Source: an uncultured Gammaproteobacteria bacterium (GTDB taxonomy: Bacteria > Patescibacteriota > Patescibacteriia > HK-STAS-PATE-3). From it: a DNA stretch of 63,055 nt. The notes under the pieces are model-generated. The model saw nothing but the letters and a program-made list of their open reading frames with translations, did not search any database and was not told where the DNA came from. The position numbers and the translations under genes are program-made. Below, one piece after another: positions 21,835 through 26,649 of this stretch; the stretch's first letter is position 1, and every line of letters starts with the position of its first letter. The stretch is taken from contig CAZWTD010000004.1 in NCBI GenBank assembly GCA_964637345.1, positions 1 to 63,055 on the forward strand, in the 5' to 3' direction.

Positions 21835-22875
21835 ATGGAAACCCTCCTCCTCGTCGTTATCATCATTCTCGCCGCAATTCTTGTGGCTGGCTTCGCTTAC
21901 CTAAGCCAAAAACTCGGGAAGCTGCAAAAACCGGCTGACGATCCCCAGTCGCTCCTCATGCTCAACCAGAACCTTCAAGGCCTCCAGACCCGCCTCGACG
22001 AGACGAGCCGCTCGATCCACCAGTCGATGCAGACCCAGTTCGGCCAGAGCGCCCAGATTATCAAAGATGTCACCGAACGGCTCACAAAACTCGACGAAAC
22101 GAACAAGCAAGTCCTCAACTTCTCCGGCCAGCTTCAAGGGCTTCAGGACCTCCTGAAAAACCCGAAGCAGCGCGGCGCAGTCGGCGAGTATTACCTCGAG
22201 ACCGTCCTGAAGAATGTCCTCCCGCCCGGGAGCTACGAGACGCAATACCGCTTTAACGACGGCGAGATCGTCGACGCGATTGTCCGGGTGAAGGACAAGA
22301 TCATCCCGATCGACGCGAAATTCTCCCTCGAGAATTATAATCGCCTCGTCGAGACGACCGATCCGGTCGAGCGCGAGCGCCTCGAGAAGGCGTTCGTGAA
22401 CGACCTGAAGCTCCGAATCCAGGAAACCGCGAAATACGTCCGCCCGGAAGAAGGGACGCTCGACTTCGCCTTTATGTTTATCCCCTCGGAAGCGATTTAC
22501 TACGACCTGCTCATCAATAAAGTCGGCGCTGTCAAAGAGAACACCGAGAACCTCATCCAGCGCGCCGGCGGGAAATACCGCGTCATCATCGTCTCCCCGA
22601 CCTCCTTCCTCGCCTACCTCCAGACCGTCCTCCAAGGACTTCGCGCGCTCCAGATCGAAGAGTCCGCGAAAGAGATCCGCAAGAACGTCGACGACCTCTC
22701 GCGCCACCTCCGCGCCTACGAGGAGTATCATACGAAACTCGGCGGCCATCTGAAAACGACCTTGAACGCCTACGTCGCGTCCGACGGCGAGTTCAGGAAA
22801 ATCAACAAAGACGTCCTGAAGATTTCGGACGCGCCCGCCTCCCCCGCCCTCCCGCCGACCAACGAAACCGAATAG
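21835..22875 (+). CDS. rmuC: DNA recombination protein RmuC
   Basis: N-terminal TM, coiled coil, KQRGAVGE, IPIDAKF, FAFMFIPSE, VSPTS. Confidence 0.92.
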   Translation: METLLLVVIIILAAILVAGFAYLSQKLGKLQKPADDPQSLLMLNQNLQGLQTRLDETSRSIHQSMQTQFGQSAQIIKDVTERLTKLDETNKQVLNFSGQLQGLQDLLKNPKQRGAVGEYYLETVLKNVLPPGSYETQYRFNDGEIVDAIVRVKDKIIPIDAKFSLENYNRLVETTDPVERERLEKAFVNDLKLRIQETAKYVRPEEGTLDFAFMFIPSEAIYYDLLINKVGAVKENTENLIQRAGGKYRVIIVSPTSFLAYLQTVLQGLRALQIEESAKEIRKNVDDLSRHLRAYEEYHTKLGGHLKTTLNAYVASDGEFRKINKDVLKISDAPASPALPPTNETE

Positions 22876-22884
22876 CCCTGTTCC

Positions 22885-22992
22885 TTATAACAGCTCCCCG
22901 CTCGCAAGGTGCTGACTAGCCTGCGAGTAGTTCGCATAAAACACCAAACATAACCTTTATGCGCAATTATTTCGCATAATAACGAGTTGTAC
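22885..22992 (+). other. Degenerate attC-like recombination site preceding cassette 1
   Basis: TTATAAC(22885) and ACATAAC(22948), hairpins CTCGCAAGG/CCTGCGAG and TTATGCG/CGCATAA, ending in GTTGTAC. Confidence 0.45.
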
Positions 22993-23949
22993 GAAAATTT
23001 GCCTCCCTCATTATCAGATAAGCGCGGCTATACCACCAAGATTACTAAACACCGAATGACCCACAAATACCACATGCTAAAGTTCGACGTATTAGCAAAT
23101 GTTATATCGGGTCTTTTTGGAATAACTACAAAAAATAAAAGTGTTTTTGAAATCCCATCTGATTTCTTACTCATGTTTGATTTACAGGTAGAATTTCAAC
23201 AATGGCCTGATAAATCTGAAAGAAATGAAAGAGTGCATCAATTAGCCTCGAGACTGATATTAGCATTTAACGATATAAATGAATCGATTGGTTCATTAAA
23301 CAGAAATCTTGTTTTGCTAAATAGTGACTTTAGTTTGGTTAGAGTAAAAAAGATTCCGATTCAAAAAGCATTACTGGAGAAAAGACTAGACCAAGTATTC
23401 CATGATGTAAGAGTTTCTAAAGGTCTCTCTAGTATAATTACGCCCCATATAAAAAGTTCTCTAACTCTTTTATTAAGATCATATGTTGATCGGGTTGCTG
23501 AGGACTGTAAAAAGGTGGTCGAAGTAATTTCTCCAAGAGGTAACCCTTTAGTTAAAAACCTCAACGTGCCTCCCGCATACTTGCAGCAAACCAACGAGGT
23601 GTTAGATCTATTTTACCTTGGGTACAAATCTACAAGCCTACTGGTCTTAGGAAAACTATTTGAGGGAATATTAACTCGCTACATTATTCGTCTTGTGCAA
23701 TCGAATAAAATTAATTTGAACATGTCGGCCCTTAGAGAGATGACGTTTGATAATAAACTTGGACTATTGTTTTCAAAAGGATTTGTTACAAGAAAAGATT
23801 ACTTGATTCTTGCTAAACTGATTTGGGATAGGAACATTGGTGGGCATTTTGTGAGCGAAAGAAAACGTAGGGAATCAGAAAAAGAGGCAGAGGCCACAAT
23901 TAAGTTAGTTATGCCCTTATTGAAGAAGTATGACACAAAACTGAAATGA
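22987..23949 (+). CDS. Cassette 1: protein with C-terminal HEPN/DUF4145-like domain
   Basis: AT-rich. LVLGKLFEGIL..DRNIGGH contains R-x4-H. Alternative ATG at 23056. Confidence 0.7.
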   Translation: MYENLPPSLSDKRGYTTKITKHRMTHKYHMLKFDVLANVISGLFGITTKNKSVFEIPSDFLLMFDLQVEFQQWPDKSERNERVHQLASRLILAFNDINESIGSLNRNLVLLNSDFSLVRVKKIPIQKALLEKRLDQVFHDVRVSKGLSSIITPHIKSSLTLLLRSYVDRVAEDCKKVVEVISPRGNPLVKNLNVPPAYLQQTNEVLDLFYLGYKSTSLLVLGKLFEGILTRYIIRLVQSNKINLNMSALREMTFDNKLGLLFSKGFVTRKDYLILAKLIWDRNIGGHFVSERKRRESEKEAEATIKLVMPLLKKYDTKLK

Positions 23950-23988
23950 TAGCCGCGCTTATCTTTATTAGACGATCGGCAAATCATC

Positions 23989-24045
23989 GTACAACAGCGT
24001 CTATACGACATAACGAGTACGTCGTATGAGACGCAAACGTTAGGT
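23989..24045 (+). other. attC site 1 (57 bp)
   Basis: GTACAAC-A-GCGTCT-ATACGAC..GTCGTAT-G-AGACGC-AAAC-GTTAGGT, including an extrahelical G. Confidence 0.9.
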
Positions 24046-24063
24046 GCCATTTCGTCTCATAAC

Positions 24064-24654
24064 ATGTTGAAAGCTACGCTCGATAGAAATTGCTTAATAA
24101 GCCTGAAGGAAAAAGACGGCGAGTTTGAAGAAATTCAGGAAATTATTGAATTACATAAAAAGAAAAGTGTTACCGTTTTTGTATGTGCCATAAGCGCTTC
24201 TGAATATCAGAGTGACGGTAGCATATCTCCTAAATATGATGATTTTACAAATTACCTAAAATCAATTGGCTGTGAAACTTTGGATGAGCTAGAACCCATG
24301 GCATATTGGGATATAGCTTATTGGGATCACGCTCTCTGGTCTGGGGATTCTATGAAAGAGTTTGAGAAAAAAATACACGAAATTCTTTTCCCAAATCTCG
24401 AATTCGAATATCAAACTTTTTGCAAAGCAAAAGGAATTGATCCTGATGCTAAACCATTAGATAAAAAATGGCTGAATGCAAAAGCCGACGTACAATCCAT
24501 CTGGTCTCACATCAATTCAGGGAATGATATATTTATTACGCAAGACAAAAACTATTTAAAGGATCAAAAACGGCAACTATTAGTAACGCTTGGCGCAAAG
24601 AATATCAACTCGCCGAAGGAGGCATTAGAAATCATCCGACGAAACGGCACCTAA
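24064..24654 (+). CDS. Cassette 2: PIN-domain-like protein
   Basis: TLDRNCL, SASE, KADVQ, DIFITQDKNY acidic pattern. The stop TAA lies within the inverse core ACCTAAC. Confidence 0.72.
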   Translation: MLKATLDRNCLISLKEKDGEFEEIQEIIELHKKKSVTVFVCAISASEYQSDGSISPKYDDFTNYLKSIGCETLDELEPMAYWDIAYWDHALWSGDSMKEFEKKIHEILFPNLEFEYQTFCKAKGIDPDAKPLDKKWLNAKADVQSIWSHINSGNDIFITQDKNYLKDQKRQLLVTLGAKNINSPKEALEIIRRNGT

Positions 24655-25011
24655 CACGGGCTAGCCGGTTCGCGAGCTATACAACTTGTTTATCACTAAG
24701 CCATAAAAATATGTCAGCAGAATGGGTTTCAGCGGTAGCGGCGGTTATTTCAGTCCCAATATCTGTTTGGGCGATAATATCCGCAAGAAATAACTCTAAG
24801 AACATAAAGAACATCTCCCAACGCTTTGGGATAGTAATGGAAGGCAATACGGTAATTGGCTCTGGTACCGCAGTACATATTGGTGACAGGAAATAAGTTT
24901 GCTATACGCTCGCTCACCCAAATTGCTCATTCATTCCGGCGGTACCTCGCTTTGCTCGATATTCTACCGCCTCAATTCCGTCGCAACTTCGGCTAGCCCG
25001 AAACGTTGTGC
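24649..25011 (+). other. attC site 2, interrupted by a 225-bp insertion (138 bp when reconstituted)
   Basis: ACCTAAC-A-CGGGCTAGCCG ... CGGCTAGCCCG-AAAC-GTTGTGC, a perfect 11-bp stem. Confidence 0.8.
24711..24896 (+). CDS. 61-aa single-TM hypothetical protein nested in attC2
   Basis: N-terminal hydrophobic helix. Flanked by GCTATAC direct repeats at 24676 and 24901. Confidence 0.6.
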   Translation: MSAEWVSAVAAVISVPISVWAIISARNNSKNIKNISQRFGIVMEGNTVIGSGTAVHIGDRK

Positions 25012-25110
25012 GCCATCAGATGTATTTTACCTATTAAAGAACCGAGGCAGTTACTTCGCGCATTGCGGAGTACTTACCTCGGCGTTTCGTCGGGTCGCTG
25101 GTGATAACAG

Positions 25111-25506
25111 TCAGTCGATTCTGGATCTCGACGCGTTCGCCAGGTCGTCGATGACGAGTAATGTGGCGAGTCTGCTCGGATCATCCTTGATGACGTAGCC
25201 CGAGAAGGAACTCCGGGTGCCGTCAAGTCTTTGGAGCTCGACGACACTGACATTCCACTCAATCCCGGAAGATCCCAACCGGATGATCGTGGTCGACTCG
25301 TCGACGGCGAAGGCAGAGCTGTTATCGACAGTGCACTGTGCGATCCCGTCGTACCAGTAGACACCGAGGGTGCCCGTCGCACTCTGGAAGTGGAGCACCA
25401 TGGAATCGGTTGGAACAATGTGGCTGGTGAGTCGCACGCTACTGCACCCGGCGGACGCCCCGACGAAGAGCGTACCGATCAACACAAGGAACGTGAAACG
25501 CCTCAT
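25111..25506 (-). CDS. Cassette 3: predicted lipoprotein, reverse orientation
   Basis: AAGGAGG SD, signal peptide with lipobox-like SAG-C. Confidence 0.7.
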   Translation of the reverse strand: MRRFTFLVLIGTLFVGASAGCSSVRLTSHIVPTDSMVLHFQSATGTLGVYWYDGIAQCTVDNSSAFAVDESTTIIRLGSSGIEWNVSVVELQRLDGTRSSFSGYVIKDDPSRLATLLVIDDLANASRSRID

Positions 25507-25587
25507 AGCGAACCCTCCTTCAGTTGGGACGTTTGCCTGGCGGGGATCAAGACAATCGGTAGTTGCCAGATTTCTACCGAACGTGCG

Positions 25588-25616
25588 AGCGTATCACGAA
25601 ATGACTATAATGTCAA
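25588..25616 (-). promoter_or_regulatory. Cassette-internal sigma70 promoter
   Basis: TTGACA-N17-TACGCT with extended TG. Confidence 0.7.
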
Positions 25617-25646
25617 TAGAAACTGTAAGAAAATACATCTTACAGC

Positions 25647-25708
25647 GCACAACACGGCGTATACGCCACTCCGTTTCTCTCCGCAGCGCATACGCCGAAA
25701 CGTTAGCT
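25647..25708 (+). other. attC site 3 (62 bp)
   Basis: GCACAAC-A-CGGCGTAT..ATACGCCG-AAAC-GTTAGCT. Confidence 0.88.
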
Positions 25709-25730
25709 GACACTCAGGATTCTCACTTTT

Positions 25731-26210
25731 ATGACCTATAAACACACCCAAGTTAGCTACCTGATGATTACCGTAACGGCTGCGGTACTGATCCTCTTCG
25801 CCTGGGTGTATCTTACTGCCCGGGCCGAGGCGCCGTCCTATGACTCAGGAACAAACGCCGGCGTTACTGGAGCTATGGCGCTCGTCGTCGTTCTCCTCGC
25901 TTCCTTCGTTTCCTTGCACGTACGAATTGATGATCAGCGTCTACGGATCTCCTTTGGCTATGGCATTTTTACAAAGCACTTTGCCCTGCGCGACATCCAA
26001 TCAGCGAACGTCGTAAGAAATAAATGGTATTACGGGCTAGGAATACGCTGGTCCCTGAAGCCGAGGATGTGGATCTACGCCGTTTCCGGCCTTGACGCAG
26101 TTGAACTACAACTGAAGAACGGAAAAGTCTACCGGATCGGTACGGACGAAGCTCAAGAACTCGAGGGCGCGATTCTCCAATCGATACAAAGGGAACAGCG
26201 CGACTTCTGA
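25731..26210 (+). CDS. Cassette 4: two-TM protein with bacterial PH-like C-terminal domain
   Basis: Begins 29 nt after the core GTT. Two TMs, then WYYGLGIR..VSGLDAVEL..IGTDE. No matching attC seen downstream. Confidence 0.75.
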   Translation: MTYKHTQVSYLMITVTAAVLILFAWVYLTARAEAPSYDSGTNAGVTGAMALVVVLLASFVSLHVRIDDQRLRISFGYGIFTKHFALRDIQSANVVRNKWYYGLGIRWSLKPRMWIYAVSGLDAVELQLKNGKVYRIGTDEAQELEGAILQSIQREQRDF

Positions 26211-26319
26211 CCTAAAGCCAAGCCTCGCTTCTTTCGAGTTACATAAATAGGCCTTCAACACTCTCGCCTTCTCGGCAAGATTCGGATACCTTTCCCAAAT
26301 AAAAGTTGTCCCGCGGGTA

Positions 26320-26649
26320 TTACACCGCGGGACTTGGAGCAGACTGAAGCTTGCGAACGACGTCTTTCGGCAGGTCACGGTAACAGTGGCACTCATCATC
26401 GTAGCTTGCCAAGACGCCTCTTAGGGTCGCGACCACACGATCCCCGACCTTCGCTTCGGTCACGGTGATAAGCCGCTGGCCTTCGGCCCAGACTCTTGTC
26501 TCGATCTCGGCCACCGCGACCTGATCAGGCTCGAAAAAACGAAGGCTGTCGAGGATGACCGCGAGATGCCGAAGGCCGAGGCCGAACATGGCCAAGAGCT
26601 GACGCCGACGAGCACGCTCGAGAAAAAGCTGCACTTCGTCTAAACGCAT
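26320..26649 (-). CDS. Hypothetical protein
   Basis: AGGGAGG SD. A 9-bp hairpin GTCCCGCGG/CCGCGGGAC overlaps the stop. Confidence 0.6.
   Translation of the reverse strand: MRLDEVQLFLERARRRQLLAMFGLGLRHLAVILDSLRFFEPDQVAVAEIETRVWAEGQRLITVTEAKVGDRVVATLRGVLASYDDECHCYRDLPKDVVRKLQSAPSPAV

Follow-up and report, generated by a model that had tools for sequence, protein, structure and literature searches.

A complete gene within the hairpin loop of an attC site in a Patescibacteria cassette array

A single attC site that encloses a gene

We analyzed a stretch of 63,055 nucleotides (hereafter the window) from contig CAZWTD010000004.1 of assembly GCA_964637345.1, which is deposited as an uncultured Gammaproteobacteria bacterium and assigned by GTDB to Patescibacteriota. 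Positions 22987-25702 comprise three integron-type cassettes, the second of which ends in the recombination site attC2. This site (24649-25011) is a single attC that has the boxes and pairings of such sites but not their length; an earlier reading of this DNA from its letters alone (the sequence-only reading) had likewise taken it as one site and not as two cassettes. We hold, with a probability of about 75%, that it is one attC of a Patescibacteria type, in which the loop of a hairpin termed P3 holds a complete gene, as in every checkable member of the subfamily with the L box GGCTAGCC. Since the P3 loop holds gene B, cassette 2 carries two genes, one of them inside its own recombination site. 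The cassette has the following features.

24040-25005 (+): cassette 2, beginning with the TT of the preceding G|TT junction and ending with the G of its R' box; two genes
24040-24057 (+): 5' end of the cassette, TTAGGTGCCATTTCGTCT; putative partner of the extended R'' in the circular cassette, forming helix 1, which covaries in the family
24064-24654 (+): outer gene A, 196 aa; stop codon inside R''; possibly PIN-like
24638-24667 (+): left arm, composed of the extended R'' GACGAAACGGCACCTAAC, spacer A and L'' CGGGCTAGCCG; its motif AACACGGGCTAGCCGG recurs in related loci
24668-24687 (+): 5' half of P3, GTTCGCGAGC plus the imperfect extension TATACAACTT; holds the first GCTATAC and pairs with 24895-24913
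24711-24896 (+): inner gene B, an open reading frame (ORF) of 61 aa in the loop of P3; one predicted transmembrane (hydrophobic N-terminal) segment
24895-24913 (+): 3' half of P3, AAGTTTGCTATACGCTCGC; overlaps the stop codon of gene B and holds the second GCTATAC
24914-24923 (+): linker or "c-box" TCACCCAAAT, conserved and unpaired, between P3 and P4
24923-24986 (+): hairpin P4 (TTGC...GGCGGTA / TACCGCC...GCAA), second branch of the variable region, from folds
24987-25011 (+): right arm, composed of CTT, L' CGGCTAGCCCG, spacer AAAC and R' G|TTGTGC; crossover point 25005|25006

The boxes L'' (24657-24667) and L' (24990-25000) pair at 11 of 11 bases, confirming the perfect stem reported by the sequence-only reading. 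R'' (ACCTAAC, 24649-24655) is the exact complement of the G plus TTAGGT at the start of its own cassette (24039-24045), which is the signature of an integron crossover at G|TT. Over a longer span, 24040-24057 and 24638-24655 are complementary at 17 of 18 bases, so that the 5' untranslated end of the cassette is complementary to the last codons of gene A together with R''. The outer gene is thus likewise closed by an extended R stem, which measures 18 bp here and 19 bp in the related locus L024. The other R'' boxes of the window array also match the start of their own cassette.

Minimum free energy folds of both strands enclose the ORF region by GCGAGC...GCTCGC and an imperfect extension (TATACAACTT / AAGTTTGCTATAC), so that the ORF lies, as had been claimed, in a hairpin loop of the attC itself. 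The variable region forms a three-way junction of the stem of the R and L boxes, hairpin P3 and hairpin P4. The L-box pairs reach a probability of at least 0.96 in the full 363-nt strand, and also in related sites of 557 and 922 nt, as an equilibrium estimate with DNA energy parameters. The spacer of attC2 is asymmetric (A versus AAAC), and there are bulges at the GTT/AAC triplet that adjoins the L stem. The c-box is present in nearly all members of the family, with a looser CCCAAAT-like form in contiguous relatives, and P4 varies in sequence among relatives with its hairpin always kept.

An assembly artefact or a chance resemblance would explain the layout without any biology. Repeated arms can indeed break or mis-join assemblies, and the two source runs from a sludge metagenome (X1 and X2) have a low depth of ~4-6x. 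However, the arm-to-ORF and ORF-to-arm junctions are both spanned by contigs of these two runs, which shows that the layout of attC2 is not a mis-assembly. In addition, more than 20 independent assemblies show this layout, each with inverted repeats of its own on the two sides of the insert. We therefore regard this explanation as having a negligible chance of being right.

The split layout recurs in Patescibacteria integrons

A scan of one genome per species with the right-arm 19-mer TCGGCTAGCCCGAAACGTT gave 32 loci, compared to an estimated ~4 expected by chance. Nearly all come from Patescibacteria metagenome-assembled genomes (MAGs), including Kerfeldbacteria, Gracilibacteria, Peregrinibacteria, Parcubacteria, Woesebacteria, Buchananbacteria and Microgenomates. 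All 24 sites with enough upstream DNA have the left arm AACACGGGCTAGCCGG 200-1000 bp upstream of the right arm, and nearly every interval is almost filled by one forward ORF of 61-252 aa. The inner genes include an AAA_33 kinase, a Trypsin_2 protease, a HigA-like helix-turn-helix protein and many small membrane proteins. Splitting is also seen with other, non-palindromic L boxes, whose two copies are perfectly complementary over distances of 365, 877, 940 and 1055 bp. At locus L029, the left GCATAGC and the right GCTATGC represent a double compensatory change. Among attCs outside the selection by the search motif, ~5 of 25 are split.

The same arrays also contain contiguous attCs (16-134 nt between L'' and L') with the order R''-A-L'' (11 nt)-P3-(CCCAAAT-like linker)-P4-ACTT-L' (11 nt)-AAAC-R'. 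As these contain P3, this hairpin is a regular part of the site. Split sites have the gene in the loop of P3, except that it occupies the P4 loop in L021 and the whole variable region in one site of L024. A metagenome scan for the contiguous form (GGCTAGCCGG N10-40 CACYCAWAT) was too loose, giving at least 120 loci, and those listed were all chance matches.

To assess the pairing, fixed-length pieces of 27 sites (24 split and 3 contiguous relatives) were compared and the pairs counted. Helix 1, between R'' and the start of its own cassette, is paired in 82% of cells, with compensatory changes at 6 of 12 pairs; for helix 2 (L'' with L') the values are 98% and 5 of 11. Helix 3, the base of P3 that flanks the gene, is paired in 74% of cells and has compensatory changes at 9 of 13 pairs. 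The observed values were not reached in any of 500 shuffles, and slid controls were 17-41% paired. The columns of helix 3 were not chosen for pairing, and hence provide independent evidence that the two flanks of the embedded gene pair with each other. The L-box mismatches of the relatives are mostly A.C on the top strand, corresponding to G.T on the bottom strand, in line with a substrate formed by folding of the bottom strand.

These data bear on a second explanation, in which two cassettes were fused, the left arm being the remnant of the attC of the first gene and the right arm the attC of the 61-aa gene. Two-gene cassettes that arose through loss of an attC are known, and the ORF possesses both a start codon of its own and an intergenic spacer. 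Nevertheless, neither L'/R' boxes after the left arm nor R''/L'' boxes before the right arm could be found, and the two arms are exact complements that covary across the gene in several types of L box. Moreover, the sequences directly flanking the gene pair together as P3, and a fusion would require that more than 20 cassettes had each undergone two precise deletions. We consider such a fusion very improbable. Two further candidates were rejected. P3 as a nested attC, with an inner R''/R' pair (AGCTAA...TTAGCT) and its own crossover, fails because the G before TT is not conserved, and a second cassette inserted by IntI at a secondary GTT of the loop fails because the inner gene comes with no second attC.

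Six of the related arrays (L010, L016, L020, L024, L029 and L038) have an IntI-like gene as a neighbor, with 30-36% identity to IntI1. The IntI-like protein of L010 matches TIGR02249 "integron integrase" best, with 216 bits, below the cut-off of 265; its gene diverges from an array of three cassettes, the third of which is of the split type. The rule that R'' complements the start of its own cassette is kept in 13 related sites, in which 9-11 of 12 bases match the upstream junction, compared to 4-9 for the downstream junction. Exact G|TT boundaries are kept in different sequence contexts, an indirect hint that IntI may recombine the folded strand. Two contigs of one Kerfeldbacteria MAG (L008 on contig 1 and L039 on contig 2) share 141 identical bases, namely the 3' end of the embedded gene and the right arm, and diverge right after GTT, which indicates one cassette end with two downstream neighbors in that population. 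An identical right arm (P4 TTTGGTCGGGTT...AACCCGACCAAA) is found in five MAG contigs, these two together with L028, L036 and L037; the latter three, in which the inner gene is readable, have different inner genes. The five also have a matching left-arm variant, GGTGAGCGA, and their MAGs are labelled as different lineages.

In a groundwater run (X3) searched with positions 24620-25040 of the window, the arm word has a depth of 150-300 compared to 13.6 for the outer gene, and the attC family is highly repeated in this community. X3 contains many arm-bearing contigs and "joints" across the ORF. As L001, a cassette with an inner gene described below, is itself one such joint, the joints are no sign of gene-less forms.

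Sister cassettes combine outer and inner genes independently

The closest relative of cassette 2, locus L001 on a contig of 1.1 kb, has gene A at 96% identity and the same cassette start, which is preceded by ...GGCTAGCCCGAAACG. Its left arm is as in the window and its right arm begins alike (TCGCTCACCCAAATTGCTC...). The inner gene is a different one, of 130 aa, closed by a perfect 14-bp inverted repeat (GCGAACGAAAAAGT / ACTTTTTCGTTCGC). In L002, a 75% homolog of gene A runs into the same left arm, and here R'' (GACATATAAC) and the cassette start (TTATATGCC) have changed in concert. The 5' boundary of cassette 2 is identical in L001 and L002, whose upstream neighbors differ. L162 contains the sole homolog of the 61-aa protein, again between left and right arms of this family, with a different upstream context and neither an outer gene A nor the GCTATAC repeat. 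At the first bases of L162 a tRNA-like 3' end was seen by eye only, and ARAGORN gave no tRNA. On L163 (a Logan contig of 1135 bp), the region ~600-1135 has a 71% homolog of the L001 inner gene in the P3 loop of a site with a different L box, TGGCATATCCG. More distant homologs of the L001 inner gene are ordinary chromosomal genes without arms.

The outer gene thus occurs with different inner genes and the inner gene without the outer one, so that the arms form a constant frame with two variable slots. In the comparison of the window with L001, homology breaks after GGTTCGCGA at the left arm and before TCGCTCACCC at the right arm, in both cases inside conserved arm sequences. The right arm of the window has 1 mismatch in 29 bases against L001, which shares the outer gene, and ~7 in 30 against L162, which shares the inner gene. 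Exchange of the inner gene by homologous recombination between arms would be the simplest explanation of this sequence pattern.

These comparisons could also be read as meaning that each arm is a self-sufficient, quasi-palindromic site (AAC-N-CGGGCTAGCCG-GTT), and that the genes are modules exchanged by a dif-like crossover at 24668|24669. In line with this, GGCTAGCC is palindromic, GTT directly follows L'', the breakpoints of both window/L001 and window/L162 homology fall at the left arm, and the palindromic subfamily is the only one that is always split. However, non-palindromic L boxes are split too and are still complementary across the gene, L'' pairs with L' in the contiguous relatives, and a lone arm gives a stem of only ~6 bp. 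The closer agreement of the window right arm with L001 than with L162 also speaks against genes moving as such modules. We regard self-sufficient arms as unlikely.

The sequence-only reading had explained the embedded gene by an insertion: a mini-element of 225 bp with AACTT/AAGTT ends would have entered the TATAC loop of a 138-bp attC once, duplicating GCTATAC. Every sequence feature on which it drew is present. GCTATAC occurs at 24676-24682 and 24901-24907, the ends are AACTT (24683) and AAGTT (24895), and a 61-aa ORF with one hydrophobic segment occupies 24711-24896. Deletion of 24683-24907 (225 bp) indeed restores GCGAGC-TATAC-GCTCGC and leaves a gene-less site of 138 bp, which folds well as a three-way junction. 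Both the direct repeat and the hairpin restored by its deletion are real; when the 363 bp were shuffled by mononucleotides, a 7-nt direct repeat that makes a 6-bp hairpin on deletion arose in 41 of 2000 trials (~2%). This is unusual but not compelling, and the repeat with the restorable hairpin is suggestive without being decisive alone. Far better founded is the identification as an attC, with an R'' that complements the cassette start and with arms that recur across dozens of independent assemblies.

The insertion itself does not hold against the relatives. It had been proposed together with the expectation that homologs carry the GCTATAC repeat, and the L162 homolog lacks it. The layout is no one-off event, since every checkable member of this attC family has a gene in the loop: the 24 members have different genes at the same place, with no consistent direct repeats and inverted repeats of 13-32 nt instead. 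Nor does the unit behave as a mobile one, being single-copy in the window and found beyond the source study only in L162, inside such an attC. The gene B unit has neither a transposase nor multiple copies, and its only ORF is that of the 61-aa membrane protein. GCTATAC moreover overlaps the palindromic TATA of the imperfect extension of the P3 stem, which is comparatively weak in the window. A single insertion by such an element is therefore quite improbable.

The stems closing the inner gene and a proposed mechanism

In most family members, P3 runs on into an inverted repeat of 13-32 nt that is perfect or nearly so. The repeat of L035 reaches the base before the start codon with its left side and includes the last codons of the gene with its right side; in L035 and L001, the P3 stem ends 1-2 nt ahead of the start codon. 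The closing repeat of L163 differs from that of L001 and is the reverse complement of the last codons of its own gene. Homologous genes in L001 and L163 with different closing repeats indicate that the repeats are not inherited with the gene. Judging from the sequences, they seem to have been made in place. We infer that the stems may grow by palindrome extension via template switching; the entry of genes into the loop is likewise inferred.

Putting these observations together, we propose the following model. In single-stranded DNA, the left arm (R''-L''-P3 5' half) would pair with the right arm (P3 3' half...L'-R'), leaving the gene as a loop. With cleavage by the integrase at 25005|25006, both genes would move together, in a circular cassette with the junction ...CCCGAAACG|TTAGGTGCC.... 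Gene B would have to travel with the upstream gene, in agreement with the sequence-only reading. The inner gene may be exchanged between near-identical sites by recombination of the conserved arms, and the stems closing it may lengthen after its arrival by copying one arm onto the other. On a more speculative level, and we think it rather doubtful, attC "frames" with a second cargo slot in a hairpin loop might capture ordinary chromosomal genes, lengthen the closing stem by template switching and so keep the ability to fold, and serve as working substrates and an intermediate in the genesis of cassettes.

Several points weigh against one split but functional attC. At 363 bp, and 290-1100 bp in relatives, the sites are outside the range of 57-141 bp of known attCs (PMC5027507), and such long variable regions would be expected to fold less readily in vivo. 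The 11-bp L stem of attC2 has no canonical extrahelical G or T bulge inside it. No integrase gene was found in the window by tblastn with IntI1 as query. The related loci were found via the right-arm motif, which biases the sample towards one subfamily, and helices 1 and 2 were partly selected by complementarity. There is no contiguous GGCTAGCC-type site among the 24 checkable sites, and its absence beyond them is unproven.

Comparison with known systems

Known attC sites have a length of 57-141 bp, with variable regions that range from 3 nt to branched structures (PMC5027507). Similar to canonical attCs with branched terminal structures, of the type of the Vibrio cholerae repeats (VCR), attC2 has RYYYAAC/GTTRRRY boxes with the crossover point at G|TT, L boxes that pair, and an R'' that complements the beginning of its cassette. 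It also shares their position at the 3' end of the cassette, an attI-like site at the head of the array and mismatches that would favor the bottom strand. By contrast, it measures 363 bp, and up to ~1.1 kb in relatives, instead of 57-141 bp (PMC5027507), and has a whole gene in a hairpin loop. Its L stem is an 11-bp perfect duplex, the spacers are 1 nt versus 4 nt, and the R stem reaches ~18 bp.

As in fused two-gene cassettes, one recombination site would move two genes; unlike them, the 5' half of attC2 lies between the genes, the second gene is inside the site and nothing has been lost. Short ORFs of the ORF-11 type, which overlap attC or attI, aid translational coupling (PMC8876359). They likewise place coding sequence inside a recombination site, whereas they overlap a site of normal size and the present ones are free-standing genes of 51-311 codons that enlarge the site several-fold.

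In other systems, foreign DNA is also found within attC. IS1111-attC insertion sequences and group IIC-attC introns target attC sites. The embedded genes differ from these in having no transposase, reverse transcriptase or ribozyme; they are diverse, ordinary cargo genes that sit in a hairpin loop of the variable region, and the layout is found throughout the family. On Acinetobacter plasmids, dif modules are flanked by alternating XerC/D sites. Here too, genes are bracketed by inverted short recombination motifs and modules reassort, but the two arms pair as one folded site with integron-type boxes, in arrays associated with IntI-like genes.

The searchable literature, of which our coverage was incomplete, gave no description of gene-sized inserts as a regular attC feature or of integrons in Patescibacteria; the two-slot attC family appears to be undescribed. 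The current picture of attCs is one of short non-coding hairpins that end a cassette, and detection tools are built on 57-141 bp. In a two-slot cassette, the integrase would have no means of parting one of the genes from the recombination site, and tools modelled on short attCs would likely mis-segment such arrays. The sites document Patescibacteria integrons with a distinctive attC architecture and bear on the definition of attC. In addition, near-identical arms around different genes, homologs of these genes in chromosomes and stems that copy the last codons offer a handle on how genes and attCs are joined.

Loci L009-L038, together with attC1 and attC3 of the window, share an unusual core in which an 11-bp L stem is centered on TA and AAC-NN precedes L'. 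At the R box the spacers are 1 nt versus 4 nt, and a GYT/AAC triplet pair follows beyond the L stem. The distance between the two AAC/GTT triplets of the left (R''-L'') strand is 12 nt, compared to 5 nt in the canonical attCaadA7.

The inner and the outer gene

Gene B is 87% identical to its homolog in L162 (P0009) at the protein level and 84% at the DNA level. The codon differences are 20 synonymous and 8 mostly conservative non-synonymous ones, which indicates that gene B is a real gene under purifying selection. No sigma-70-like promoter was predicted ahead of it, and searches of Pfam and NCBIfam gave no match. The suggestion that it is an antitoxin or a membrane partner of the upstream gene is not borne out, since L001 combines gene A with another inner gene and the gene B homolog of L162 has no gene A beside it. 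A fixed module of outer and inner gene, such as a toxin-antitoxin pair, was rejected on the same comparison; the genes are not conserved as neighbors in L001, in L162 or around the distant homologs of gene A.

Gene A has eight homologs, with identities of 43-96%, in which D142, D155 and D161 are invariant. Its AlphaFold2 model, built from the eight homologs, has a predicted local distance difference test score (pLDDT) of 82. The best PDB matches of the model by Foldseek are the PIN-like protein-only RNase P (PRORP) of Thermococcus (E-value 0.02, TM-score 0.44) and VapC11. The sequence-only reading had called the gene "PIN"; these weak matches to the model make a PIN-like fold plausible, although weakly so, and Pfam and NCBIfam have no match for gene A. 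The distant homologs (L003-L007, L040 and L041) are not in integron contexts and have other neighbors. A 50% homolog (L003/L004, Joint Genome Institute contigs) lies directly downstream of genes for a CD-NTase and Cap15, of the cyclic oligonucleotide-based antiphage signaling system (CBASS), a neighborhood that hints at a defense-related role. L041, a Logan contig of 1198 bp, has a 52% homolog and a gene for a DUF4190 membrane protein, with no attC arms seen; its ends are identical over 26 nt, and it may be circular or tandem.

The cassette array and its surroundings

The head of the array is formed by an attI-like site.

22925-22986 (+): attI-like site, 62 bp; motif GTTCGCATAA ... TTCGCATAATAACGAG|TT

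The same motif, GTTCGCATAA...TTCGCATAATAACGAG|TT, is also located between the IntI-like genes and the first cassettes in L010, L029 and L038. The gene rmuC (21835-22875) lies directly upstream of the attI-like site. All junctions of the array have the form ...AAACG|TT..., at 22986|22987, 24039|24040, 25005|25006 and 25702|25703, and the attCs of cassettes 1 and 3 are ordinary short sites. An Rfam search over 22800-26400 gave chance-level matches only.

The array is followed by a fourth unit (25703-26300), which starts with TTAGCTGAC and has the gene of a 159-aa membrane protein at 25731-26210. There is no attC after this gene, and the unit is probably the end of the array. Cassette 3 (25006-25702) contains a sole gene (25111-25506) on the minus strand, that is, against the array, which encodes a protein of 131 aa with a lipoprotein-like signal sequence. 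The G+C content of cassettes 1 and 2 is 36-41%, compared to ~55% in the flanks.

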